A stretch of DNA of 58,978 nt, taken from the IMG/VR virus record IMGVR_UViG_3300028588_000028, positions 1 through 58,978 of that record. The stretch is one strand, 5' to 3'. The notes beneath the pieces are model-generated. The model was not told the origin of the DNA. It did no database searches and was given only the letters and a program-made list of their open reading frames with translations. The DNA is from a virus (lineage: Duplodnaviria > Caudoviricetes). The translations under genes were made by a program, and so were the position numbers. Positions 4,236 to 53,252 of this stretch are shown here, one piece after another (within the stretch, counting starts at the first letter, position 1; the number at the start of each line of letters is the position of its first letter).

Positions 4236-4372
4236 GCGCAGCGAGGGTGCAGGACAAAGCCATATCAGGCATGAGACTTGCTAGCTCGGTCCGGTTGTGC
4301 GATCATGGCGTTAGAGTGTTGCTGTTGAAGGTGGATCGTTACTTCTGCCTGCTTTGCCGCATGACCTGCTGA
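4232..4372 (+). CDS. small Cys-containing hypothetical protein
   Basis: ATGA coupling; CDH...CLLC. Confidence 0.4.
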   Translation: MSAARVQDKAISGMRLASSVRLCDHGVRVLLLKVDRYFCLLCRMTC

Positions 4373-4418
4373 CAGAGTAGGCTCTCACATGTGCGGCGGA
4401 GCGTGAACGGCCTGCCCC

Positions 4419-4471
4419 AGCCCCTGTCTCTCCCCATCGGGTGGGTTGAGAGACAGGGGCTTCTCTCGTTT
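4419..4471 (+). terminator. intrinsic terminator hairpin
   Basis: 13-bp stem AGCCCCTGTCTCT / AGAGACAGGGGCT followed by a pyrimidine run. Confidence 0.65.
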
Positions 4472-4488
4472 CGGGGTAAACTCTTCGG

Positions 4489-5934
4489 ATGACCACCACG
4501 ATCCCGAACACGCGCGACAACACTGGGCGCAAGAAGAGCATGTCCATGCGCAAGCTGTTCGACAAGGTGGAGTACAAGCCGCACGACGGACAGGTCCACG
4601 TCCACGCAGCCCGGCGGATGGCTCGGTTCCGCCTCGCGAGCTGCGGACGACGCTACGGCAAGTCCAACCTGGGCGGTCACGAGCTGACTGCTGCTGCGAT
4701 GAAGGCGTACTACGCCAAGGAAACCCTCAATCCGAAGGGCAAGCGCCACGAGTACTGGATCGTCGGCCCGGAGTACAGCGACGCAGAGAAGGAATTCCGC
4801 GTCATGTACAACGACATGGTCGGCTTGGGGATGGACTTCGACCAGCCGGGCACGTACTACAGCGCCGACGGAACCAACATGTCGGTGTCGCTGTTCGGCG
4901 GGCGCTTCCTCGTGCACGCCAAGAGCGCCAAGTACCCTCAGAACCTGGTCGGTGAGGCGCTCATGGGTGCGGTCTTCGCCGAGGCGAGCAAGCTCAAGCC
5001 CACGGTCTGGACCAAGTACATCCGCCCGACCCTCGCCGACTACGCCCGTGAAGGCTCCTGGGCGCTGTTCGCCAGCACTCCAGAGGGGAAGAACTGGTTC
5101 TACGACCTCTACATGCGCGGACAGAACCCAGCTGATCCGCAGTGGTGGTCAACGCGCCAGCCTTCTTGGACGAACAACTACCTGTTCCCCGGTGGCGCCA
5201 TGGATCCCGAGATCCTCGACATGAAGGGCGACATGACCGAGGAGAAGTTCAAGCAGGAGATCGAAGCCGACTTCACGGAGTTCACCGGACGCGTGTTCAA
5301 GCGCTTCTCCGAAGAGGACAACGTTGGAGACTACCCGTACGACCCGCGCTGGCCGGTGTACCTGGCTACAGATTATGGTTTCACCAACCCGAACGTGATG
5401 CTGTTCGTGCAAGTTGACATCTGGGGCAAGGTTTGGGTGTGCGCGGAGTACTACCAGCGCAACCGCACCAGCCAGGAGTTCGCAGCAGACATCGCCTCCG
5501 ACCCAAAACTGGGTGCTCTGGCCAGGAAGGCGTCGCTCCTGTACCCCGACCCAGAAGACCCCGGTGCTAGCGCCACCCTGGCCAACGCGCTGGGCGTCCT
5601 GCCCCAGAGCGGGACCGGGGGAGTCCTCGCCGATCGCATCGACCTCATCCGCCGCTGGCTCGTGCCCGGCCCGGACCACCTTGAGGACGGCGACCCCGAC
5701 AAGAAGCCCCGTCTGTTCTTCGATCGATCCTGCAAGGAGACGATCCGAGAGATGAACGACTATCGGTATCCGGAAACGGTGTCTGAGACCTCCAACGCCA
5801 AAGAGAACCCGATGAAGAAGGACGACCACGCTCCTGAGGCGCTCGGACGCTTCTTCGGAGGACACTTCAAGCAGGATGTCCAGGAGCAAGAGCACGCGAT
5901 CATCTCACACGCCCAGTATCAGCGGGGCCGGTAG
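4489..5934 (+). CDS. terL: terminase large subunit
   Basis: Walker A CGRRYGKS, Walker B-like VFAEA, STPEGKNWFY motif, nuclease TDYGFTNP and C-terminal DDHAPEALGRF. Confidence 0.95.
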   Translation: MTTTIPNTRDNTGRKKSMSMRKLFDKVEYKPHDGQVHVHAARRMARFRLASCGRRYGKSNLGGHELTAAAMKAYYAKETLNPKGKRHEYWIVGPEYSDAEKEFRVMYNDMVGLGMDFDQPGTYYSADGTNMSVSLFGGRFLVHAKSAKYPQNLVGEALMGAVFAEASKLKPTVWTKYIRPTLADYAREGSWALFASTPEGKNWFYDLYMRGQNPADPQWWSTRQPSWTNNYLFPGGAMDPEILDMKGDMTEEKFKQEIEADFTEFTGRVFKRFSEEDNVGDYPYDPRWPVYLATDYGFTNPNVMLFVQVDIWGKVWVCAEYYQRNRTSQEFAADIASDPKLGALARKASLLYPDPEDPGASATLANALGVLPQSGTGGVLADRIDLIRRWLVPGPDHLEDGDPDKKPRLFFDRSCKETIREMNDYRYPETVSETSNAKENPMKKDDHAPEALGRFFGGHFKQDVQEQEHAIISHAQYQRGR

Positions 5935-8817: not shown

Positions 8818-10338
8818 ATGGCCGACGAGATCACACGCACACCGTATGCGAGCGCAATGCCGTACGTGCAGCCGGAGAACGTGGAGAAGTGGGTTTCTTC
8901 CGAGTACGACCAGCAGCGCTTGGCTGCGTACAACTTGTACGACGACCTGTATGAGAACAGCCCCTCGGTCTTGAACATGATGATCCGAGGAACCAACGAG
9001 GACCCCAAGCTCCTCCCCACCGCCAAGCGCCTCGTCAACACCATGGCGCGCTACGTGGGCAGAGGATGGGGATACACAGTGTCGATGCCTCCTGAGCTCA
9101 TCCAGCCCGGGGATGATCAGCCCACGCAGGACGAGCTGATCGCAGCCAACCTCGCTGCGGTGCAGGCTATGGACAACCTGTTCGTGCGAGAGAACCTGCT
9201 GGCAGAGTTCGAAGCGGGCATCCGCCCCTGGCTCCGCCGGGGTGACTGGGTGTGGTACATCAGCGCAGACCCCGAGAAGGAGCAGGGATCTCGCATATCG
9301 GTGGAGCCCATCGATCCCCGGACGTACTTCCCCGTCATGGACGACCCGAACGACCTGGGTCGCGTCACCGGTTGCCGCATCGTCGAGCAGATCACGCTAG
9401 AAGGTGAAGACGAGACCTTCGTCAAGGTGCAGGAGTGGCTCAAGCCCTCCTCTGACAGCTACGACCTGGGTGAGACCGGAGAGTACATCTCCTACTCCAA
9501 CGTCGTGTACGAGCTGGAAGGCTGGGACACTGAGGAGGCGAAGATCAAGGAGGTCCGACAGGACGCCATCGCCCTCGACGGCATCACGCAGCTACCTCTG
9601 TACCTCATCCAGAACAACAAGGAGACCGCGAACCCGTTCGGACACAGTGACCTTGCCGGTGTGGAGAACGTTCTCGTCGGCATCAACCAGGCTGCGTCGG
9701 ACCAGGACGAGGCTCTCGCCATGGCCGGGCAGGGCATGTACGTCACGGACTCTGGTGCACCCATCGACCCCGTGACCAAGCGCGCCGTCGCATGGATCCT
9801 GGGAGCCAAGCGCGTCATCCAGGTCGGACAGGGCAAGAAGTTCGAGAGAATCGAGGGTGTCAAGTCCATCGAGCCGTCCAAGACGCACATCGAGATGATG
9901 GAAGAGCGCGCATACGGCACGGTGGGCGTGAACGACGTCGCGCTCGGCACCACACAGGGGCAGTTCAGCGGCGTCGCCTTGGGCATCAAGATGTCTCCGG
10001 CCTTCGACGAAGCCGATGCCAAGGACCGCGCCATCAACGGCGTCTGGAACCACATTCTGTACGATCTGCGTCAGTGGTTCTCGCAGTACGAGAGCGTGAA
10101 CATGGACGGCATCGTGTTCCGCAGCGCTACCGATCCGTCGCTGCGCATGCCCTTCGACCGGGACGCCCGCTTCCAAGAGCTGCTGGAGCTGAAGAACACC
10201 GGCATCATCGACGACGACTACTTCCGCGACCAGCTCCGCACCGTGTTCGGCTACGACATCCCGCTGAACGCAGTGTCGGACGCTGCGGACCCCGAGGCGG
10301 ACCGCGCCAACGCTGAGCTGGATGCTGAAGACGCCTGA
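8818..10338 (+). CDS. portal protein
   Basis: 506 aa between TerL and head genes; NPFGHSDLAGVE and SGVALGIKMSP motifs of SPP1-type portals. Confidence 0.9.
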   Translation: MADEITRTPYASAMPYVQPENVEKWVSSEYDQQRLAAYNLYDDLYENSPSVLNMMIRGTNEDPKLLPTAKRLVNTMARYVGRGWGYTVSMPPELIQPGDDQPTQDELIAANLAAVQAMDNLFVRENLLAEFEAGIRPWLRRGDWVWYISADPEKEQGSRISVEPIDPRTYFPVMDDPNDLGRVTGCRIVEQITLEGEDETFVKVQEWLKPSSDSYDLGETGEYISYSNVVYELEGWDTEEAKIKEVRQDAIALDGITQLPLYLIQNNKETANPFGHSDLAGVENVLVGINQAASDQDEALAMAGQGMYVTDSGAPIDPVTKRAVAWILGAKRVIQVGQGKKFERIEGVKSIEPSKTHIEMMEERAYGTVGVNDVALGTTQGQFSGVALGIKMSPAFDEADAKDRAINGVWNHILYDLRQWFSQYESVNMDGIVFRSATDPSLRMPFDRDARFQELLELKNTGIIDDDYFRDQLRTVFGYDIPLNAVSDAADPEADRANAELDAEDA

Positions 10339-11879
10339 TGGCTGACAAGAAGCCCCTGGTTCGCCAGCTGAAGTTCGAAAAGAGCCAGCTCGACAAGGTG
10401 AACCAGGGGCTGCGTGACGCGCAGAAGGACATCGACGCAGTATTGCGACGAGCGCCCAGGGGAGGCATCGGCGACAAGGTCACCCGGCTACAGGCCGAGC
10501 AACAGCTCAAGGTCATCAACGGCATCCTCGACAAGAACTACGATTCTCTCGATAAGATCCTCCAAGCGTCTCAGAAGCTTGCAGCGGAATTGGGCTCTGA
10601 GGTGGTCTCGGACTATGAGGAAACCCTGACAGACCTCATCCTGGACCCCGACAAGCGGGCCACTATCCGCAGCAGCGAGGCTCAGCGCGTTGCCAACAAC
10701 ATCGACTCCTTGGTGCGCAGGCAGATCGGCTCGGCCAGGCCTCTCAGCGAGCGGGTGTACGACACGGCTAAGTTGTCGAAAGGTCTAGTCGACAGAGCCA
10801 TCAACTCGGGGCTAGCGCAGGGCCTGAACCACCGCCAACTCGCGAACAAGATCGCGCCAATGATCAATCCCGATGTCAAGGGCGGCGTCAGCTACGCTTC
10901 GCAGCGCCTGGCGCGTACTGAGTTGAACAATGCATACCATGCAGCGTCCGTCGAGCGTTACAAGCACAGCTTCGTAGAGGGTGTCGACTGGAACTTGTCT
11001 TCTAGCCATCCCGAGGGCGACGAGTGCGACGGGCTCGCCAGCAACTCTCCGTACGATATGGAAGAGGTTCCTGCGAAGCCACACCCGCTGTGCTTCTGCT
11101 TCCTGACCCCGGGCTTGCCCTCTGAAGAAGATTTCATGAAGAACCTCTTCGATGGAAAGTACGATGACGGTGAAGAATTCGGAGATTTCGGGAAGGCTGC
11201 GATCGAAAGAGAAGAAGCTCCTGCATTCGACATCTCAAGGTTCAAGGTCAGCAAAGACGGCTCGGACATCGCTGTTCCCACGGGCCTTGTCAAGGGCGTC
11301 AAGCCGGGAGATCCTTCCGCTACTGCTCAGCAGCAAGCCGTGTGGACTTACACTGCTACCTCCAAGAACATCAACGACAAGCTCCGGGCAATCGACACTG
11401 GTGTTGCTAAGACCGGTCTAAACAAAAAGCAACAAGCTCTGCACGACGAGTTGTTCAAGCTCACGAATGAGAACACCTTGAAGCAAGACACCATGTTGTT
11501 CCGGGCAGTCAAGAAAGACAACATCCGCGCGCTTTTTGGTGACGACGACGACATCATGAACTCTGTTGGTCGTACATACAGGGATGGTGCATTCTTGAGC
11601 ACTTCGTATGGCGAGTCTTCGCTGGAGGGCTTCGGTGCTTATCAGCTCAACATCATGGCAGCCAAGGGCACTCGCGCCGCAAACATCGCAGACTATGGAA
11701 TTGCTGGGTCTCAACGAGAAGTGCTGCTGCCCCCTGGAAGTAATTTCCGAGTTATGGGAGTCCGAAAAGTAAAGTACACAGTGCAAGAACGCGATTATAG
11801 CGTTCGGGATTCAACTGTTTACAAAGAGGTCAAGAGAAGCCGCACAGAGCTGGATGTTGTATTGGAGCAAGATGCCTAA
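10338..11879 (+). CDS. MuF-like minor head protein with C-terminal VIP2-type ADP-ribosyltransferase domain
   Basis: RLARTELNNA, CDGLA and HPLCFC (MuF); YT...INDKLR, LFR, FLSTS and QREVLL (R-S-E ART triad). Confidence 0.85.
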   Translation: MADKKPLVRQLKFEKSQLDKVNQGLRDAQKDIDAVLRRAPRGGIGDKVTRLQAEQQLKVINGILDKNYDSLDKILQASQKLAAELGSEVVSDYEETLTDLILDPDKRATIRSSEAQRVANNIDSLVRRQIGSARPLSERVYDTAKLSKGLVDRAINSGLAQGLNHRQLANKIAPMINPDVKGGVSYASQRLARTELNNAYHAASVERYKHSFVEGVDWNLSSSHPEGDECDGLASNSPYDMEEVPAKPHPLCFCFLTPGLPSEEDFMKNLFDGKYDDGEEFGDFGKAAIEREEAPAFDISRFKVSKDGSDIAVPTGLVKGVKPGDPSATAQQQAVWTYTATSKNINDKLRAIDTGVAKTGLNKKQQALHDELFKLTNENTLKQDTMLFRAVKKDNIRALFGDDDDIMNSVGRTYRDGAFLSTSYGESSLEGFGAYQLNIMAAKGTRAANIADYGIAGSQREVLLPPGSNFRVMGVRKVKYTVQERDYSVRDSTVYKEVKRSRTELDVVLEQDA

Positions 11880-42988: not shown

Positions 42989-43353
42989 CCGCCTTCGGCG
43001 ACGCAGTAGGCGGACAGCTCAAGGCCGCTGGTGAGACCTTTATCCAGAGGAACGCCGTCTACAACGACAACTACAAGCGCGTCGGACAGGTCATGCGCGC
43101 CCTGTTCCCCGAGGGCGTCGAGCTGAAGACCTCGGAAGACTTCGAGCGCTGGCACATCCTGGAGCTGATGGTCGTCAAGCTCACCCGATACACCAACAAC
43201 TGGGAGACGACCGGCGGACATCCCGATTCGCTGGAAGACCTCTCGGTGTACTCGGCGATGCTGATGCAGATCGACGTCGACCAGGTCGCGGTGCAGGAGG
43301 AGAACGAGCGCATCCTGGCTCAAGCCGACGCAGAAAACGACATGGGGTTCTGA
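42985..43353 (+). CDS. all-alpha NTP-pyrophosphatase-like protein (DUF6378 / nucleotide-modification-associated type)
   Basis: RNAVY, VKLTRY and HPDSLEDLSVYSAM motifs. Confidence 0.65.
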   Translation: MTAFGDAVGGQLKAAGETFIQRNAVYNDNYKRVGQVMRALFPEGVELKTSEDFERWHILELMVVKLTRYTNNWETTGGHPDSLEDLSVYSAMLMQIDVDQVAVQEENERILAQADAENDMGF

Positions 43354-44456
43354 TGAAGTACGTCTCCCTGCACACCCACTCGACCTTCTCGTATGGCGAC
43401 GGCTTCGGGCTTCCCGAGGACCACGTCGCACGTGTGAAGGAGCTGGGCATGACGGCAGTGGCGCTGACCGAACACGGCAACGTCACGAGCCATGTCAAGC
43501 TGGAGATTGCAGCGACAGCCGCTGGCATCAAGCCCATCTTCGGCTCTGAGCTATACTGCGCACCGATGGACATGCGCGAGGCCAAGAACATGCGCAAGTG
43601 GCACATGACGGTTCTCGCGATGGATCAGCCGGGCTACCAGAACCTCATGGAGATGACGACGATAGCTTGGGATCGGGACAACTACCGTTGGCCCACCGTG
43701 CTGGGAGACAACTTCGCAGCGCACCAGGAAGGGCTCATCGCCACCTCCGGCTGCGCAGACAGCCACCTGGCGTGCACCCTGCTGGGAGGCAAAGGCATCG
43801 AGCCGCCCAGCAACAAGGCCGAGCGTGACAGTTACTACCGCAAGGCCGTCAAGGTCATGCTCGGCTACAAGGCTCTCCTGGGGGACCGCTACTACCTAGA
43901 GGTGCAGCGGTTCCCCGGGCTGGAGCGCACCCGCATCCTGAATGCGCAATACGCCAAGTGGTCCAAGGAGTACGCCATCCCGCTGGTGGCCACTAGCGAC
44001 GTCCACTACCCCAAGCCGGAGCAGAACGAGATCCAGAAGATCCTGCACGCCTCGTCTCGTCAGACCGGCACTGTCGCAGCAGCCGAGGCAGACTGGGAGT
44101 ACGGGATCCTGCTGACCTATCCGCTCAGCGACGACGAGATCTTGAACGACCTCATCCGCACCGGCCTCACCCGCGGCGAGGCGCAAGCAGCCATCATTCA
44201 CACAGGAGAGATTGCAGAACGATGCAACGTCAGCGTACCCAAGATGGATCGAATCCGCTACCCGCTAAGCGACGCCGCGTTCGCGCCGTGGGACCCGCCC
44301 CAGCACCGCGCAGGAAGTCGCGCCCTGCCGAAAAGCCGATGGGAGAGCGCACCAGCGCAGACGTCCTCTGGCACTGGTGTCGAGAGGGCTGGAAGTACCG
44401 AGGCCTCGACAAGCGCCTCACCCCGGCGGAGAAGAAGGAGTACTCCGCGCGTGTGA
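43353..44456 (+). CDS. dnaE: DNA polymerase III alpha, N-terminal PHP part
   Basis: SLHTHSTFSYGDG, ALTEHGN, KPIFGSE and ATSDVHY; similarity ends near 44300. Confidence 0.9.
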   Translation: MKYVSLHTHSTFSYGDGFGLPEDHVARVKELGMTAVALTEHGNVTSHVKLEIAATAAGIKPIFGSELYCAPMDMREAKNMRKWHMTVLAMDQPGYQNLMEMTTIAWDRDNYRWPTVLGDNFAAHQEGLIATSGCADSHLACTLLGGKGIEPPSNKAERDSYYRKAVKVMLGYKALLGDRYYLEVQRFPGLERTRILNAQYAKWSKEYAIPLVATSDVHYPKPEQNEIQKILHASSRQTGTVAAAEADWEYGILLTYPLSDDEILNDLIRTGLTRGEAQAAIIHTGEIAERCNVSVPKMDRIRYPLSDAAFAPWDPPQHRAGSRALPKSRWESAPAQTSSGTGVERAGSTEASTSASPRRRRRSTPRV

Positions 44457-46597
44457 AGTACGAGATGGAGCTGATCATCTCGAAGGACTTCGTGGACTAC
44501 TTCCTGGTGCTGTCGGAGGTGCTGCGCATCGCGAAGGACCGAGGCATCGCTATCGGCCCGGCGCGCGGATCGTCCGCCGCATCGCTCGTGTGCTACCTCA
44601 TCCGCATGACAGAGGTCAACCCGATGGAGTACCCGCTCATGCTGTTCGAGCGCTTCATCGACCCGAATCGTCACGATCTCCCCGACGTCGACACCGACAT
44701 CGAAGACGAGCGTCGCGACGAGGTCCGCAAGATCTTCATCGAGCTGTACGGCGAGGATCGCGTCGGCAACATCGGTACGTTCACCCGCTTCCGCGGCAAG
44801 AACGCCATCGATGATGTGGCGCGGGTTTACAGCTTGCCCAAGTACGAGATCGAGAGCGCCAAGAACTTCCTGGTCGAGCGCTCCGGAGGTGACAGCCGCT
44901 TCGACGCAGGTATCGAGGATACCGTGGCGATGTTCCCCCAGGTCAAGGAGGTCTTCGACAAGTACCCCGAGCTGTACCACTCGATGACCCTGGAGGGTAA
45001 CTACAAGAACTTCGGAGTACACGCGGCTGGCATCGTCGTGGGGCAGGAGCCGCTGAACCACTACGTCGCCACCTACGCGAAGCACAACGTCGGAGCCAAC
45101 AAGACCTCGCTCAAGGTCCTCTCGGTCGACAAGTACGATGGCGAGTCGCTGGGTCTGCTCAAGCTCGACGCGCTGGGGCTCAGCACTATGGGAATGATCG
45201 CCGACGCCATCAAGATGCTGGACATGTCTCTGGAAGAGCTTTACGACATCCCTCTGGACGACCAGGACACCCTGGACGCGTTCAACAGGGCGGACGTCGT
45301 GGGCATCTTCCAGTTCGAGGGGCGCACTACGAAGATGGTCGTCGAGGAGTTCAAGCCCACGAACTTCATGGACCTCGCCGCCATCAACGCTCTGTCGCGC
45401 CCCGGCCCTCTACACTCCGGAAGCACCGGCGACTTCCTCGCCATCCGGCAAGGTCACCAGGAGCGCGACGACCTGCACCCGATGGTCGCAGCCATCTGCG
45501 AGCCGACCGAGGGACAGATCATCTACCAGGAGCAGATCCTCCAGATCTGCGGCGACATCGGCAAGCTCCCCTGGACGCACCGTAGCGCCATCCGTAAGAT
45601 CATCAGCTCCAAGAAGGGCGAGTCCGCGTTCAACGCGCTGTGGGACGAGTTCTACAAAGGTGCGTCCAGCAACGGGATCGACGAGCCGACCGCTCGCGAG
45701 ATCTGGAAGCGCATGGTCACGGCTGGCACGTACGCCTTCAACATCGCACACTGCGTCAGCTACAGCATGCTGGGCTTCTGGGCCATGTGGCTCAAGGTGC
45801 ACCACCCTCGCGAGTTCTACGCCAGCCAGCTCAACAAGATCGGCATGGGCGACCAGTCTGCCCGGGACAAGTCCGTGGCGCTGATGCGGGACATGTCGGA
45901 CCCGCGCTTCGGCCGGACACTGCAGGTGCTGCCTCCGATGCCCGGCAAGAGCGGCATCTCCTGGAAGCCGGTGCAGGAGGGCGTCCAGGCGGGCTTCCTC
46001 CAGATCCCCGGTGTGGGGCAGAAGACAGCAGCGCTGATCGAGGAGTTCGACCGGGACATCGGCATCGAAGAGTGGGAGGATCTGCGCCTCGGAGTCAAGG
46101 GCGTCGGCCCCGGCACCATCCGCAAGATCGAGGAGTTCGCCGAACAGGACGACCCCTTCGGCGTCTACAAGGTCAAGCGCGACTCCGACGAGATCAAGCG
46201 CTGCATCCGCAAGGGCGACCTCCCCGGCATCCCGCTGCCGAACTGCTTCTCGGACGAGATCCCCTACGACGCAGTGGAGACCCGTCAGACGGTCATGGGC
46301 ATCCTCAAGAGCCGCAACCTGAAGGACCTCTTCGAGGACCACCGCAGCCGGACCGGCGAGGAGCTGGACCCCAAGACGGTCAAGGAGCCGGATCTCAAGG
46401 AGTCCATGACTCTGTACATGGAAGACGAGCGCGGCCTGATGACCGTGAAGGTGCCGCGGTTCCGCTACCAGGAGATGAAGGCGAGACTGTGGGACGCCAA
46501 GCTCAACCACGACTACATCATCGCAGTCACGAAGAAGTTCCCATTCCAAGGTAAGACGGTCCAGGCTACAGAGATCTATGTGATCGACCCGGACTGA
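44339..46597 (+). CDS. dnaE: DNA polymerase III alpha, polymerase part (in the -1 frame relative to the PHP part)
   Basis: GPARGSSAASLV, LLFERF-like LMLFERF, PDVDTD, GVHAAG, KLDALGL, IFQF, YQEQ and YAFN; the frame is open from 44222 and the first in-frame ATG is at 44339. Confidence 0.9.
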   Translation: MGERTSADVLWHWCREGWKYRGLDKRLTPAEKKEYSARVKYEMELIISKDFVDYFLVLSEVLRIAKDRGIAIGPARGSSAASLVCYLIRMTEVNPMEYPLMLFERFIDPNRHDLPDVDTDIEDERRDEVRKIFIELYGEDRVGNIGTFTRFRGKNAIDDVARVYSLPKYEIESAKNFLVERSGGDSRFDAGIEDTVAMFPQVKEVFDKYPELYHSMTLEGNYKNFGVHAAGIVVGQEPLNHYVATYAKHNVGANKTSLKVLSVDKYDGESLGLLKLDALGLSTMGMIADAIKMLDMSLEELYDIPLDDQDTLDAFNRADVVGIFQFEGRTTKMVVEEFKPTNFMDLAAINALSRPGPLHSGSTGDFLAIRQGHQERDDLHPMVAAICEPTEGQIIYQEQILQICGDIGKLPWTHRSAIRKIISSKKGESAFNALWDEFYKGASSNGIDEPTAREIWKRMVTAGTYAFNIAHCVSYSMLGFWAMWLKVHHPREFYASQLNKIGMGDQSARDKSVALMRDMSDPRFGRTLQVLPPMPGKSGISWKPVQEGVQAGFLQIPGVGQKTAALIEEFDRDIGIEEWEDLRLGVKGVGPGTIRKIEEFAEQDDPFGVYKVKRDSDEIKRCIRKGDLPGIPLPNCFSDEIPYDAVETRQTVMGILKSRNLKDLFEDHRSRTGEELDPKTVKEPDLKESMTLYMEDERGLMTVKVPRFRYQEMKARLWDAKLNHDYIIAVTKKFPFQGKTVQATEIYVIDPD

Positions 46598-46617
46598 AAA
46601 TATTTCTCGGAATTAGT

Positions 46618-46646
46618 TTGCTTTCTCGGAAACGATGGAGCATACT
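46618..46646 (+). promoter_or_regulatory. SigA-type promoter for the ncRNA, tRNA-like element and surface protein
   Basis: TTGCTT-N17-CATACT. Confidence 0.75.
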
Positions 46647-46651
46647 CGTCT

Positions 46652-46853
46652 ACGAGCCGACATTGATGTGGCGGCTCGGGTCTCGAAAAGCTACCTTGCG
46701 AGGAACACGGCAAGAGACCCGCACAACTACATATCCGAAAAAGACGGTGAACAGACTGGGACCACCTGGTTGACGACCACTTAAGCGATGACGGGCTTTT
46801 TCCCAACAGCCTGCTTGACTAGGACGGATTGGTCTCCGTGGAACGACCATCCC
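46652..46853 (+). ncRNA. candidate structured non-coding RNA of about 200 nt
   Basis: Follows a promoter and has no credible ORF; stems CGAGCCG/CGGCTCG, CGGGTCTC/GAGACCCG, GAAAAAG/CTTTTTC and ACGGA/TCCGT, with loop TGGTC complementary to downstream GACCA. Confidence 0.5.
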
Positions 46854-46938
46854 GGGTAGGTAGCTCAATTGGCAGAGCAGCGGGTGCACCCCTCAGAACG
46901 ACGAGAGCAAGATCCAGGTTCGAACCCTGGCCTATCCA
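46854..46938 (+). tRNA. tRNA-like element with aberrant anticodon arm (pseudo-tRNA)
   Basis: Acceptor GGGTAGG/CCTATCC, D-arm GCTC-AATTGGCA-GAGC, T-arm CCAGG-TTCGAAC-CCTGG; 29-nt segment in place of the anticodon arm. Confidence 0.7.
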
Positions 46939-46975
46939 CTCGCAACAACCCAATACAGATCACAAGGAGATCAAC

Positions 46976-47956
46976 ATGAACGCTCGCAAGATCGCGGCGA
47001 TGAGCGCCATCGCTGCACTCGGCCTGGGTGGGGCGCTCGTCGCCACATCGGCTGCGTCGGCCCACGACAAGACCGTCGACATCACCTGCACCAGCATCGG
47101 CATCATGCTCACCAACTACCCCTCGGGCAGCACGGTCGGCGGCACCATCGACGGAGTAGACCTCGGCACGAGCACCTTCGGCTCCGAGGGCTTCGCCTAC
47201 TCGCAGGCGCTCGACCCCGCCGTGCCGCACACCTACACCCTCGTCGTCAAGAGCGGTGACGGCAACTACGCCTTCGACATCAACGAGTCCGGCAAGTCGG
47301 ACCCGGCCTGCATCCCCGTGGTCGTCCCGCCGACCGAAGAGCCGACCCCGCCCGTCACCACTCCGCCCGTGGTCGACGTCGTCGTCCCGAAGATCCAGGA
47401 CTACCTCTCCTGCGACGGCGCGGCCTTCGTCCTCGACAACACCGGCTCCAACGTCGACGTCGTCTACACCATCAACGGGATCGAGTACCCGGTCGCTGCC
47501 GGCACCGCGCTGCACACCGATGCGGACGGCACGCTCATCGCCCCGAACGAGGTCGGCTACACCGTGACCGCGGCTGACCAGAGCTGGTCCTTCCCCGCGC
47601 TGACCGCCGAGGAGTGCCCCGTCGCCGAGGTCCCGCCCGTCGTCGTGCCGCCCACGGACGAGCCGACGCCGCCCACGGAGACCACGCCTCCCACGCCCAC
47701 CGAGACGCCCGTGGCTCCCGCGCCGGTCGCGACCCCCGGGGTCGCAGCGCCCATCCTCGTGACGGACAACGCCCCCGCCCAGCGGGTCGCAGCGGTCGAC
47801 ACGCCGGAGGGGCTGGCCTACACCGGTAGCAACCCGCTGCAGATCGGCATGGGTCTCGGCCTCGGTCTGATCATCCTCGTCGGCGGAGCCGCCCTCCTGA
47901 TGGCGTCCAAGGTGCGCCGCGCCAACCGGGTGATCGACGAGTCCCGGAACATCTAG
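46976..47956 (+). CDS. secreted cell-wall-anchored protein with LAxTG sortase signal
   Basis: AAGGAGA RBS; signal peptide ending AASA-H; Pro/Thr-rich stalk; LAYTG, TM helix and KVRR tail. Confidence 0.85.
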   Translation: MNARKIAAMSAIAALGLGGALVATSAASAHDKTVDITCTSIGIMLTNYPSGSTVGGTIDGVDLGTSTFGSEGFAYSQALDPAVPHTYTLVVKSGDGNYAFDINESGKSDPACIPVVVPPTEEPTPPVTTPPVVDVVVPKIQDYLSCDGAAFVLDNTGSNVDVVYTINGIEYPVAAGTALHTDADGTLIAPNEVGYTVTAADQSWSFPALTAEECPVAEVPPVVVPPTDEPTPPTETTPPTPTETPVAPAPVATPGVAAPILVTDNAPAQRVAAVDTPEGLAYTGSNPLQIGMGLGLGLIILVGGAALLMASKVRRANRVIDESRNI

Positions 47957-47963
47957 CTCCACC

Positions 47964-48003
47964 GAAGGCCACAGCTCCCACCAAGGGCTGTGGCCTTCTC
48001 CTA
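47964..48003 (+). terminator. intrinsic terminator
   Basis: GAAGGCCACAGC / GCTGTGGCCTTC stem. Confidence 0.7.
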
Positions 48004-48065
48004 AGCACAGAATCGGCGATATATCGCTTACTTGCAAATAGCCTAGAAGTTTTTCTGAGAATAGT

Positions 48066-48094
48066 TTGCCATAACTGCAACTTTGGAGGATACT
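48066..48094 (+). promoter_or_regulatory. SigA-type (early) promoter
   Basis: TTGCCA-N17-GATACT. Confidence 0.7.
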
Positions 48095-48138
48095 AGTACT
48101 ACAGGGCGGGAAGGACCGGCTCTGAGAAAGGCAAGACC

Positions 48139-48417
48139 ATGAAGATCTCCATCGCCGACGCTTTGCTCGTCATCCTGATCGACTCCGGCATCTCGATCGA
48201 CGGAACCAACATCATCGACTCCCTGCATTCCGCAGAGGACAACATCCTGGAAGCCAACAAGGACAGCCTCTTGGTCGGCAACCTCGACGAGTTCGGCGGG
48301 CTGTCCGAGAACGGACGTCGCAACGTCCTCCACACGAAGCGCGAGACGGAGTTCGTCGACCGCGTGATCGACGAGGGGATGATGTACGCGGGAGGCGTCG
48401 GCGGGCTGTTCAGCTAG
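48139..48417 (+). CDS. acidic hypothetical protein
   Basis: GAAAGG RBS after the promoter and hairpin. Confidence 0.75.
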   Translation: MKISIADALLVILIDSGISIDGTNIIDSLHSAEDNILEANKDSLLVGNLDEFGGLSENGRRNVLHTKRETEFVDRVIDEGMMYAGGVGGLFS

Positions 48418-48462
48418 TCCGGTAGACTGGTCGGGTCGGGGTTCGCAGCCCCGGCCTGGCTA

Positions 48463-48536
48463 GCCTCGGTACGCCAAATGGAAGAGCGAGCCGACTTAAA
48501 ATCAGCTGGTTGCGGGTTCGACTCCCGCCCGGGGTA
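48463..48536 (+). tRNA. tRNA-Leu(UAA), short variable loop, no encoded CCA
   Basis: Acceptor GCCTCGG/CCGGGGT, D-arm CGC/GCG, anticodon stem GCCGA/TCAGC (one C-A mismatch), loop CT-TAA-AA, T-arm GCGGG-TTCGACT-CCCGC, discriminator A. Confidence 0.85.
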
Positions 48537-48547
48537 CAAAAGAAAGT

Positions 48548-48576
48548 TTGCGAAATTGCAGTTTGTGGAGTAGACT
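48548..48576 (+). promoter_or_regulatory. SigA-type (early) promoter
   Basis: TTGCGA-N17-TAGACT. Confidence 0.7.
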
Positions 48577-48620
48577 GTAATTATGAAGCGGGAAGGACCT
48601 ACTTCTGGAAAGGCAAGAAA

Positions 48621-48908
48621 ATGTTCAACTACTCCGACCTCGCGGAAAAGACCCTCGCTGCTCTCACCCTCGGCTATGAGCGCGTCGGGGCTCTGGACGT
48701 CTTGGAAGAAGGCTTCGCCTGGTCGGGCCAGTTCCAGATCCACGGCGGCGTCGACCACGAGCCCCTGGTGTGGCTGTACTTCGGCTCGGTCAACACTTCC
48801 GCGGGCTACGGCGAATGGGTCTACCTGGCTTCCAACGGAGATGTGTTCTCCACCGAAGACGAAACCAGCGCCGACCCCGTCGACCCCATCTTCAACGTCC
48901 AACTCTAG
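48621..48908 (+). CDS. acidic hypothetical protein
   Basis: GAAAGG RBS after the promoter and hairpin. Confidence 0.75.
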   Translation: MFNYSDLAEKTLAALTLGYERVGALDVLEEGFAWSGQFQIHGGVDHEPLVWLYFGSVNTSAGYGEWVYLASNGDVFSTEDETSADPVDPIFNVQL

Positions 48909-51657: not shown

Positions 51658-51987
51658 ATGTCCAACAACAAGTCAGAGGCGACCTGGGGGCACCACGACC
51701 CCGCGGTCAAGCCTCCCCAGACAACTCCCATTCTGCAGAGGGAGGAGCCCCAGACGCTCATGCCGCTGCAGTACGTCGAGCGCGTCGGCGACAAGCGCGA
51801 GTCGGTCGCCTTCCCTTGGATGCTGTTCTTCGGAGCGCAGGGCGCGCACCTGTTCTACCTCGGACGCCCCGGCAAGGCCATCGCGTACCTGTTTACACTG
51901 GGCTTCCTCGGCATCGGCGTCCTCGTCGACATCTTCACGCTGCGCGACCAGGTCGCCCGAGCCAACGGATGGAGGGTCGGCGCATGA
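51658..51987 (+). CDS. TM2-domain membrane protein
   Basis: LFFGAQGAHLFYLGRPGKAIAYLFTLGFLGIGVLVD. Confidence 0.85.
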   Translation: MSNNKSEATWGHHDPAVKPPQTTPILQREEPQTLMPLQYVERVGDKRESVAFPWMLFFGAQGAHLFYLGRPGKAIAYLFTLGFLGIGVLVDIFTLRDQVARANGWRVGA

Positions 51988-53252
51988 CCGGCCAGGAGAT
52001 CAGCAAGTGGTCGGACGAGTTCATGTTCACCGCTGAGAAGTCCGACGCGTCCAAGGACCCCGAGGCGTTCCTGCTGAACGGCTCGCCGGACCCGCTGGGG
52101 CAGATCGCCGCGGCATGCAAGACGTACCTCGGCGAGTACACCCACGACCTCGCAGACATCACCGACGAGGAGCGCCGCCACTATCTGGAGCAGATCCAGA
52201 AGACGGTGCTGACCATGCCGCTGGAGACCGTGTCGCTGCACTTCTTCATCGAGGGCGTCCACCGCGGGATCACGCACCAGATGGTCCGACAGCGCACCGC
52301 AGCGTTCGCGCAGGAGTCCACGCGCTTCGCCGTCAAGGAAGACCTCGCCACCGCCGTCGCCCTGCCCCCGTCGCTGCGAGACACCGTGTTCTAGGAAGAG
52401 TACATGGACGAACTCGGAGAAAAGCTCGTCAAGCAGGGGCTGGCTCGTGGCAGCTTCACCTACGAGCAGCTCGACGACATGGCGATGGAAGAGGCGCGCC
52501 GGACCAACAAGCCTCAGCTGCACCGCAAGATCTGGGATCAGGCCGTCGAAGCCGTCTCCCTCGCCTACAACGGCCTCGTCAACGACGGCATGCCCGCCGA
52601 AGAGGCTCGCGGTCTCATGCCGACGAACGTCGTCACGCGCCTGAACTACATCACAAACCTCCGCAGCTTCTACGACACCATGTCGAAGCGCGTCGGCGAC
52701 CAGGCGCAGTTCGAGTGGCGGCTCGTGATCGCTGCGATGGTCCGAGCCATGCAGGACTTCGGCTCCAAGTCGACGTACGACGTGTTCGAGAGCGAAGAGC
52801 CGACAGACGGGGAGGCCGATCACTGGTTCAAGATGGGCGACGGTCGCTACAAGGTCACTCGTTCCAGCCGGTGGCAGTACGACGCCCTCGTCGCCGAGAT
52901 CAAGCCCGTCGAGTTCTCGCTCGGGCGTCGTGCCTTCGGAGCGGACTTCGACCGACCCAGCCGCATCGGAGAGCGGGTGGACGCCTTCGCCGCGATGGGT
53001 GTCCCGAGCAGCCGGTGGATCGAGGGAGCGCCGGAGTACAACATCCCCGGCATCAACCCCGCCGAGTGGCTGCTCGACCCGCACTCGGCGCGCCTCTCGT
53101 CGGACATGGAGTTCGATATCTGGGGCAACCGCGTCCCCAAGGGCACCGGCATCCACTGGGTGCGTAGTGCATCCATCCCCAACGGCGGTCTGCGCGACCC
53201 GAACAACAACTACATGGGCTGGGACGGCTCGAAGGTGGTGGAGTTCGAGTGA
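51984..53252 (+). CDS. thyX: ThyX-like flavin-dependent thymidylate synthase, interrupted by an in-frame TAG at 52392-52394
   Basis: THQMVRQR-x7-S (QESTRF) in the 5' part; EEARGLMP, TNLRS and AQFEW in the 3' part; same frame on both sides of the TAG. Confidence 0.8.

Follow-up and report, generated by a model that had tools for sequence, protein, structure and literature searches.

A tRNA-Trp-like element with a palindromic module in place of the anticodon arm in a phage genome, and its relatives in other phages

What use has a phage for a tRNA that has kept its body and lost the arm that reads the codon? The question is raised by an 85-nt element in a viral genome of the Caudoviricetes, IMG/VR record IMGVR_UViG_3300028588_000028, whose 58,978 nucleotides we analysed as a whole and call the window. 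The element has complete acceptor, D and T arms, and a module of 29 nt stands where a tRNA has its anticodon arm. The tRNA genes of phages are commonly put down to codon usage or to the evasion of anticodon nucleases. We found the same design in unrelated phages, and its recurrence looks, as far as sequences can tell, like that of a purpose-built RNA rather than a decayed tRNA. Our preferred interpretation is plausible but tentative: a non-decoding RNA that derives from tRNA-Trp, forms a conserved phage family and, taken as one package, would be excised in the manner of a tRNA, act in trans, dimerise through its palindrome and engage a partner that binds tRNAs. A non-decoding tRNA shape with a conserved module, present in phages of very different hosts, would indicate that phages put the tRNA fold to a further use during infection.

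A tRNA body with a rebuilt anticodon domain

The three remaining arms of the element are fully paired. The acceptor stem joins GGGTAGG (46854-46860) to CCTATCC (46931-46937) with 7/7 pairs, the stem of the D arm GCTC-AATTGGCA-GAGC (46863-46878) has 4/4 and that of the T arm CCAGG-TTCGAAC-CCTGG (46914-46930) has 5/5. TA follows the first acceptor strand, A26 follows the D arm, the variable loop has 5 nt (AAGAT) and the discriminator is A46938. The core bases of tRNAs (U8, A14, G18-G19 and the TTCGA loop) are all kept. The Rfam tRNA model (RF00005), whose cut-off is 29 bits, gives the element 46.3 bits (E = 1e-6 for the whole window) and aligns 71/71 model positions, with GC-(25 nt)-GC bridging the place of the anticodon arm. 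Across 30-33 nt the 5' half shares 91-100% identity with tRNA-Trp genes of phages, and the window itself has no tRNA-Trp gene. An earlier reading of this DNA, made from the sequence only, had described well-formed arms and a 5' part resembling tRNA-Trp, and both descriptions hold.

The same reading had proposed that a 17-nt anticodon arm was replaced by 29 nt with a GC/GC base, which the Rfam alignment bears out. The module reads GC-GGGTGCACCC-CTCAGAACGACGAGA-GC, i.e. a palindrome followed by a single strand, with G27-C28 paired to the G-C at 46907-46908 and 25 nt enclosed. No 5-bp anticodon stem closes a 7-nt loop in the element: the G27-C28 pairing is the only one available, and the flanks of the loop-like CUCAGAA are unpaired, as had been noted. 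ARAGORN had been expected to return a pseudogene or an undetermined tRNA. The program forced a tRNA-Val(cac) of 86 nt on the element. Two mini-hairpins had also been proposed within the module. Both appear in the minimum-energy fold, which is a cloverleaf, but the first belongs to a conserved 10-nt palindrome and relatives do not preserve the second (CTC...GAG). The energy of this fold is ordinary (z = -1.24, with 24/200 shuffles as stable). Hence, the reality of the element rests on comparison and not on energy.

An insertion created by the assembly is excluded by an independent DNA contig from a second leaf-litter sample, which spans 46300-47028 with 0 differences from the window. The palindrome GGGTGCACCC has one exact copy in the window, so it is no dispersed repeat of the phage. 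Antisense targets of CTCAGAACGACGAGA in the phage genome are at chance level (7 matches with at most 3 mismatches, 3.8 expected). Two other ideas were rejected. Reading of the sequence did not show how removal of an intron or of 12 excisable nt could give back a 5-bp stem, and no Rfam match indicated a hammerhead or another ribozyme.

The palindrome-module family

We searched for relatives with the pattern GAGAGCAAGATNNNGGTTC, which comes from the 3' part of the window module and fixes 16 letters in the members. It occurs in at least 181 places, i.e. 61 viral loci and at least 120 loci of bacterial genomes. A full tRNA-like element is present in at least 45 of them, with at least 22 distinct sequences of 82-85 nt, and the remainder are chance matches in coding sequences. 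The 45 loci lie on phage contigs of 31-58% GC, two of which come from bacterial assemblies (a Lachnospiraceae metagenome-assembled genome and Faecalicatena contorta). Lachnospiraceae are among the hosts of the family. Gordonia phages have members too: gene 21 of Smoothie, annotated as 'tRNA-OTHER', contains GC-GGTGCACC-...-GAGAGC-AAG, and Miskis likewise belongs to the family, which as a whole covers genomes from 31% to 63% GC. The counts below refer to 25 distinct sequences, namely 22 among the matches listed plus those of the window, Smoothie and Miskis.

A common plan is found in 25/25 sequences. It consists of a 7-bp acceptor stem, TA, a 4-bp D stem with GG in the D loop, A26 and G-C, followed by a self-complementary block of 8 or 10 nt, a strand of 12-15 nt with the consensus N-U-N-A-R-A-A-C..GAGA, G-C, a 5-nt variable loop and the T arm. 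The region on the anticodon side has 24-29 nt across the family. Its AAC and GAGA are invariant, the latter being partly forced by the search pattern. The window element has a 10-mer directly after G27-C28 and an A-rich strand followed by GC-AAGAT, and the family model R2 gives it 87.3 bits, a score that is inflated by the 16 pattern-fixed letters, as is the apparent invariance of GAGAGC-AAGAT and GGTTC. On these sequence features we assign it to the family. R2 was built from 21 family sequences, leaving aside the window, Smoothie (62.4 bits) and Miskis (64.0 bits). Non-members score lower: 49.5 and 42.1 bits for adjacent genuine tRNA-Trp genes, 40.1 for the tRNA-like piece of phage SallyK, 39.4 for the element of the relative L017 (both described below) and 31.5 for the tRNA-Leu of the window. 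Overall, a family-specific model separates members (62-102 bits) from real tRNAs (at most 54 bits).

Other searches added little to this set. There was no match for positions 46500-48700 of the window (megablast) or for the commonest gut member (blastn) among isolate phages, and none for an exact 37-nt query among viral contigs. The pattern GCAGAGCAGCGG(N)TGCACC matched one contig of the Smoothie group and one coding sequence by chance. The pattern GGTGCACC-N-GAGAGCAAG matched 47 loci, which by their context are mostly chance or coding matches and are tRNA-like only in L003, L066 and L076; GTGCACC-N-ACGACGAGAGC matched 10 loci, tRNA-like only in L066 and L076. A similar string, GGTGCACC-CTCAATCA..-GAGAGCAAGG, which may be related to the module or a chance resemblance, also occurs without any tRNA context, just 5' of a ribosome-binding site or start codon, in six loci (L064, L067, L073, L089, L090 and L093).

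The stems of the family remain paired as their sequences change. In the alignment A5, with 21 sequences, 97.5% of the 483 stem cells are paired, 13/23 pairs change on both sides and 0/500 shuffles reach the covariation score; when the partners are slid, pairing falls to 33-49%. Among near-identical gut members, the acceptor stem passes from GGGATAG/CTATTCC to GGGACAG/CTGTTCC through the mismatched GGGACAG/CTATTCC, and the T stem from ACAGG/CCTGT to GCAGG/CCTGC. Hence, compensatory changes took place inside one lineage. The alignment of homologues, which had been suggested as a check, therefore shows conserved arms with compensatory changes. The sequence-only reading had also taken the preservation of the tRNA body, with the decoding arm lost, as a sign of selection. 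This view is strengthened by the family, because the replacement module is itself conserved across unrelated phages.

Compensatory substitutions are also seen in the block after G27-C28, which is conserved in symmetry more than in sequence. It has 11 versions (GGGTGCACCC, GGTGCACC, GGTGCGCACC, GGTGCGCACT, GGTGATCACC, GTGGTACCAC, GTGGCGCCAC, GTGGTGCCAC, GTAGCGCTAC, GACGCGCGTC and GTAGTACCAC) and is self-complementary through its centre in 24/25 sequences when G-U pairs are allowed, the exception having one A-C mismatch. The centres are GC, CG, TA or AT, plus one TG (wobble). For example, GGTGCACC and GGTGCGCACC in the Smoothie group differ by a central CG and keep the symmetry. A hairpin would not need complementary bases at its centre, so these point either to an RNA duplex of two copies or to a DNA palindrome. 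The symmetry thus makes a clear structural prediction, an RNA dimer. Cofolding predicts an intermolecular helix of 10 bp with a gain of 16.4-19.5 kcal/mol for six members, against 7.1-10.5 kcal/mol for three controls. The dimerisation initiation site of HIV-1 is a palindromic dimerisation loop with GUGCAC or GCGCGC. The phage block resembles it in being short and self-complementary, in varying in sequence while keeping its symmetry and, in the window, in including the first of these hexamers. It differs from the retroviral site in belonging to a tRNA body of a DNA phage, where dimerisation is predicted only.

Members of the family are found in several genomic contexts. In L076, a phage of 31% GC, the element is followed after 17 nt by a hairpin and T-run terminator and forms a separate unit. 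Members from L117, L128 and the Smoothie group belong to tRNA clusters: in L128, at 4369-4851 on the minus strand, a member is placed 10 nt upstream of a phage transfer-messenger RNA (tmRNA) gene, with 21 tRNA genes in the stretch retrieved, and those of Smoothie and Miskis are 3-4 nt upstream of an intact tRNA-Trp. The commonest gut type stands between the genes of an Enc34-type single-stranded DNA-binding protein (SSB) and of a family A DNA polymerase. None of 31 neighbouring open reading frames (ORFs) at 12 family loci matches a GIY-YIG or HNH nuclease family, and there is one LAGLIDADG match, 1.1 kb off. In the window, where PHROGs was run on 55 ORFs and Pfam on 13, no gene of the GIY-YIG/HNH type adjoins the element. 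These mixed contexts fit an RNA product that is processed like a tRNA, and not a pure punctuation of mRNAs or the scar of a nuclease cassette. Public annotations disagree on the members, which are labelled tRNA-OTHER, Ala, Trp, Val, Arg or nothing. As a consequence, the family is invisible in databases and counts of phage tRNA genes can be distorted.

Two other non-canonical elements accompany members. In gut phages, the commonest type included (L125:2560-2643 and L119:1602-1685, both on the minus strand, and L136:6298-6379), a second odd tRNA-like element is placed 5 nt upstream of the member and has a 5-bp anticodon stem with a 21-nt loop containing GGAAACC twice. Phages of the Smoothie group have another non-canonical 'tRNA-OTHER' gene (L001:1145-1231 and L296:926-1014), which in Miskis is 2 nt before a tRNA-Tyr.

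Transcription, with possible processing and functions

The features around the element are given in table 1. The promoter-like motif has the general form GTTTGC-N15-22-GGAGnAnACT, which has five copies in the window (2706, 31868, 46616, 48064 and 48546), all on the plus strand, with 0 expected from 100 shuffles. A scan with consensus promoters and terminators reported neither the copy at 46616 nor the hairpin at 47964, the latter being without a T run. The leader has no Rfam family (a match to sR35 at 18 bits is noise) and its fold z-scores are weak (-0.87 and -1.94). It is partly conserved in contig L017 (8443-8602), where the hairpin CUGGG-ACCA-CCUGG is retained with a change from G-U to G-C. 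The hairpin that precedes the element also has a counterpart there, GACCC-TCCGTGCAGTAAAC-GGGTC, at the same place and with a similar loop. An alignment of the leader with the Smoothie spacer was unconvincing and was discarded. The ORF downstream, which encodes a secreted protein with a sortase signal, matches no family of Pfam or PHROGs, and the L017 homologue has LASTG at its end.

Table 1. Features of the window near the tRNA-like element and what each assignment is based on
Feature	Position	Strand	Basis and remarks
Promoter-like motif GTTTGC-N19-GGAGCATACT	46616..46646	+	Directly after the polymerase gene; transcript start predicted near 46652 from the sequence
Leader RNA, about 200 nt, non-coding	46652..46853	+	RNA contigs; ends approximate; hairpin CUGGG-ACCA-CCUGG
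Hairpin GGAT(T)GGTC / GACCATCC, loop TCCGTGGAAC	46826..46852	+	Read from the sequence and present in a predicted fold; stops 1 nt short of the element
tRNA-like RNA gene	46854..46938	+	85 nt including the discriminator, CCA not encoded; Rfam tRNA, ARAGORN, family model R2
29-nt module in place of a 17-nt anticodon arm	46880..46908	+	Rfam alignment (GC, 25 nt, GC); same length in 84-nt relatives
Perfect 10-nt palindrome GGGTGCACCC	46882..46891	.	Contains GUGCAC
Single strand CTCAGAACGACGAGA	46892..46906	+	Fits family consensus N-U-N-A-R-A-A-C..GAGA (alignments A4, A5)
ORF of 326 aa with signal peptide, LAYTG sortase motif and membrane anchor	46976..47956	+	Translation; begins 37 nt past the element
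12-bp hairpin, likely end of the transcription unit	47964..47998	+	Read from the sequence; no T run
Canonical tRNA-Leu(UAA), control neighbour	48463..48536	+	ARAGORN; Rfam 45.9 bits; R2 31.5 bits

We compared four public runs, i.e. one DNA run and three leaf-litter metatranscriptomes (X4, X5 and X7), with positions 46300-47300 (1001 bases). The DNA run covers the whole region, and each metatranscriptome has one short contig (46684-46874 in X4, 46668-46844 in X5 and 46671-46823 in X7). The RNA contigs are therefore confined to 46668-46874 and stop at the 5' edge of the element or slightly inside it; only that of X4 crosses the junction between leader and element, by 21 nt, where our rule for bridging was 31 nt. 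This is a hint, not proof, of a discrete leader RNA that ends where the element starts, as contigs give neither ends nor strand. A near relative of the element was found in runs X2 and X7 (a DNA run and an RNA run). It has 5 differences over 78 nt and another 5' acceptor strand, and it sits inside a 260-nt RNA contig that continues into a ribosome-binding site.

The acceptor stem of the window element carries G1-C72, G2-C71, G3:U70 and A73, which we take to be the identity set of alanyl-tRNA synthetase (AlaRS). AlaRS ignores the anticodon. Hence, the window copy may, judging from its bases, be charged with alanine. The discriminator A differs from that of the real tRNA-Trp adjoining the Smoothie element, which is G. 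The set is also present in L017 and in 11/25 family sequences, which represent 5 of 15 acceptor types. On A5, the pair 3:70 is GU in 10 sequences, AU in 7 and GC in 4; family members without G3:U70 have A3:U70, G3:C70 or C3:G70. Charging with alanine cannot be the function of the whole family, because 14/25 sequences are without G3:U70, and it may be relevant in some lineages.

Positions 29-41 of the anticodon arm are replaced by a fixed module, a self-complementary 8-10-mer and an A-rich strand ending in GAGA. In our preferred reading, a precursor transcribed from about 46652 would be finished like a tRNA by host RNase P, 3' trimming and the CCA-adding enzyme. Excision of this type is suggested by the intact core. 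Annotation of the window with PHROGs (55 ORFs) and Pfam (13 ORFs) gave no tRNA-processing enzyme, synthetase, ligase, CCA enzyme, transferase or SmpB. The mature RNA would then act in trans on some tRNA-binding partner, as suggested by the conservation of the module and by relatives that stand alone or in tRNA clusters, and the self-complementary block would most likely join two copies tail to tail. At this locus, as a side effect, the leader of about 200 nt would owe its 3' end to the excision and the surface-protein mRNA its 5' end.

Several observations weigh against this interpretation. The single sequence folds with an ordinary energy. The dimer relies on symmetry and an energy model, and a palindrome at the DNA level gives the same symmetry. 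The RNA evidence consists of contigs and not of end-mapped reads, so that ends, strand and processing are not visible in it. Part of the similarity to the family comes from the letters fixed by the search pattern. The identity set for alanine is found in a minority of the family, and position 3 is an A in the near relative from X2 and X7. Finally, we examined relatives of the polymerase at 14 viral and 27 metagenome loci, the latter all covered by ARAGORN and a custom scan and 20/27 of them by Rfam, and only L017 and L036 (one contig, with a polymerase 66% identical) have any element in the flanks retrieved. In L017, the closest phage relative, a 5-bp anticodon stem surrounds a different insert, of 45 nt, and the R2 score places the element outside the family. 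A normal tRNA at this place in relatives, as would be seen if the window alone were disrupted, was not found: the sole close relative with an element has a non-canonical one. A scan match in L058 was within a coding sequence and was discarded.

A bolder form of the preferred reading, which we think unlikely, makes the family a class of phage effector RNAs. The tRNA-Trp body, with a palindrome for dimerisation and a single-stranded bait, would be a two-headed mimic that traps or misleads a host factor handling tRNAs. Candidate targets would be defence nucleases directed at tRNAs, dimeric synthetases and modification enzymes, and the RNA would be alanine-chargeable in some lineages and serve phages of Actinobacteria and Firmicutes. 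It is similarly doubtful that the element acts only in cis, its tRNA shape recruiting RNase P and the 3' enzymes between the leader and the surface-protein mRNA and the excised piece having no function. A processing signal at this place had been proposed from the sequence, and it has indirect support. A promoter-like motif lies about 200 nt upstream, the RNA contigs of three runs are confined to the leader with ends at 46823-46874, and a hairpin abuts the element 1 nt before its start, in L017 as well, where leader and tRNA-like element stay together despite different neighbour genes. The tRNA-like pieces of the Squash and Gillian phages (see below), with their free middle and missing arms, are also as expected if only the acceptor/T half counts. 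What such a signal leaves unaccounted for is the conserved module and the stand-alone and clustered relatives. Punctuation has no need for a module on the anticodon side, yet this module is kept over genomes of 31% to 63% GC. Furthermore, L076 has its member in a unit apart, closed by a terminator, those in tRNA clusters are surrounded by ordinary tRNAs that already give cleavage sites, and the short overlap of the X4 contig with the element, under the bridging rule, does not establish co-transcription.

Could the family instead be a record of DNA-level events? A dead copy of tRNA-Trp with a DNA palindrome, i.e. a scar of mobile elements or recombination that hitch-hikes with its neighbours, would have the perfect central symmetry that we observe, and one cassette placed in different tRNAs would give covariation. 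The intact tRNA-Trp next to the elements of Smoothie and Miskis agrees with this, as does the identical core of the SallyK and Hubbs pieces in different acceptor stems, which points to exchange of DNA. We nevertheless find a scar improbable, because members are of full length with almost all stem cells paired, compensatory changes occur among near-identical members with a mismatch intermediate, and the non-palindromic strand is conserved too. Nuclease genes of the GIY-YIG/HNH type are lacking among the 31 neighbours at 12 loci and next to the window element, and the window has a single copy of the palindrome and no tRNA-Trp gene. We regard as quite improbable that the RNA is principally a carrier of alanine, charged by AlaRS and then used as a tmRNA-like helper in rescue or tagging or as a donor or sink of alanine for tRNA-dependent transferases. 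The identity set occurs in the window, in L017 and on five acceptor stems, G:U is the commonest state at 3:70, which is unusual for a stem pair, and one member neighbours a tmRNA gene. However, most of the family and the near relative in X2 and X7 are without G3:U70, the element has no tag reading frame or pseudoknots and is tmRNA-negative in ARAGORN, and the annotated ORFs of the window include no transferase, SmpB or synthetase. A true decoding tRNA with an odd arm is very improbable. It would read through the loop CUCAGAA (CAG, Leu) or through the anticodons called by programs (Val CAC here; Trp CCA, Ala CGC and Arg CCU in relatives). In most members the 7 nt past the palindrome do resemble an anticodon loop (U at +2, A at +4, R at +5 and A at +6), and both ARAGORN and annotators assign anticodons. 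No member, however, has a stem closing that loop, which is located at the junction rather than at the tip of an arm; Miskis breaks the rule of U at +2, and the same architecture is called Val, Trp, Arg, Ala, undetermined or nothing.

The preferred reading, a non-decoding RNA of a conserved family, can also be set against known RNAs. Compared with tRNA-Trp and RF00005, the element has all three arms and the core bases and is above the Rfam cut-off, and it differs by the lack of a 5-bp anticodon stem and closed 7-nt loop, by 29 nt instead of 17 and by its discriminator A. The tRNA-like mascRNA makes the 3' end of MALAT1, and the phage RNAs C4 (P1 and P7) and CI (P4) are processed by RNase P. The window locus is similar in that a tRNA-shaped piece stands directly 3' of a non-coding RNA, whose 3' end RNase P would, by analogy, set; the tRNA-like pieces of those systems are not known to have a conserved module, whereas the present family also exists without an upstream RNA, as separate genes and in tRNA clusters. 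The tRNA-like domain of tmRNA is likewise a non-decoding mimic, and the window copy shares G3:U70 and A73 with it, while one family member lies beside a tmRNA gene. Unlike tmRNA, the element has a complete D arm and a closed cloverleaf of 85 nt, without tag frame or pseudoknots, and G3:U70 is not family-wide. In bacterial Y RNA (YrlA), another tRNA mimic, the ends form a Ro-binding stem and the tRNA-like part is distal. The ends of the element form an acceptor stem, and Rfam gives no match other than tRNA.

A full-text search of the literature, supplements apart, returned no description of the palindrome-module family, nor did passages of PMC7302621 and PMC10690425 contain one. Mimics of tRNAs and tRNA-like genes of phages are already known; a tRNA-Trp body with a conserved module of palindrome and single strand appears to be a new variety. 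As there are members in culturable Gordonia phages, their function can be directly tested.

The window genome and tRNA-like pieces in related phages

The window has a CheckV completeness estimate of 100% and 62% GC, with almost all genes on the plus strand. According to PHROGs and Pfam, the genes are arranged as in a siphovirus, those for terminase, portal, capsid, tail and tape-measure being followed by a replication block with a helicase, an exonuclease, a Sak4-like protein, a primase and a DnaE-like polymerase. The closest isolates by DnaE are the Microbacterium phages Ajin and TinyMiny, at about 68% amino acid identity. The DnaE-like polymerase III alpha is encoded in two overlapping ORFs, 43353-44456 (PHP domain) and 44222-46597 (polymerase core), and Ajin has two DnaE-like genes, 61 and 63. 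A ThyX-like thymidylate synthase is apparently split between the adjacent ORFs 51816-52394 and 52404-53252. The minor head/MuF-like ORF at 10338-11879 also matches PHROGs of ADP-ribosyltransferases. The tRNA-Leu(UAA) stands in a phage of 62% GC, and L017 has one too, so that this contig has the same leader, tRNA-like element and tRNA-Leu(UAA) as the window.

A tRNA-like piece is found in a syntenic position in the Squash and Gillian groups of Microbacterium phages (L020-L035; 44 records matched), where it comes after the SSB gene and a 13-bp hairpin and before the next gene. The ends of these pieces are conserved and the middle is swapped among unrelated versions, for total lengths of 61-122 nt, and some are without an arm. 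They are annotated as Ser, Tyr, Val or OTHER, or are unannotated. In 11 elements of this type from five lineages, 97.7% of the 176 stem cells are paired and 10/16 pairs change on both sides, part of which may reflect separate origins rather than selection. In SallyK (L002:1504-1625) and Hubbs (L023:196-317), the internal 111 nt are 100% identical, and the acceptor stems and neighbour genes differ.

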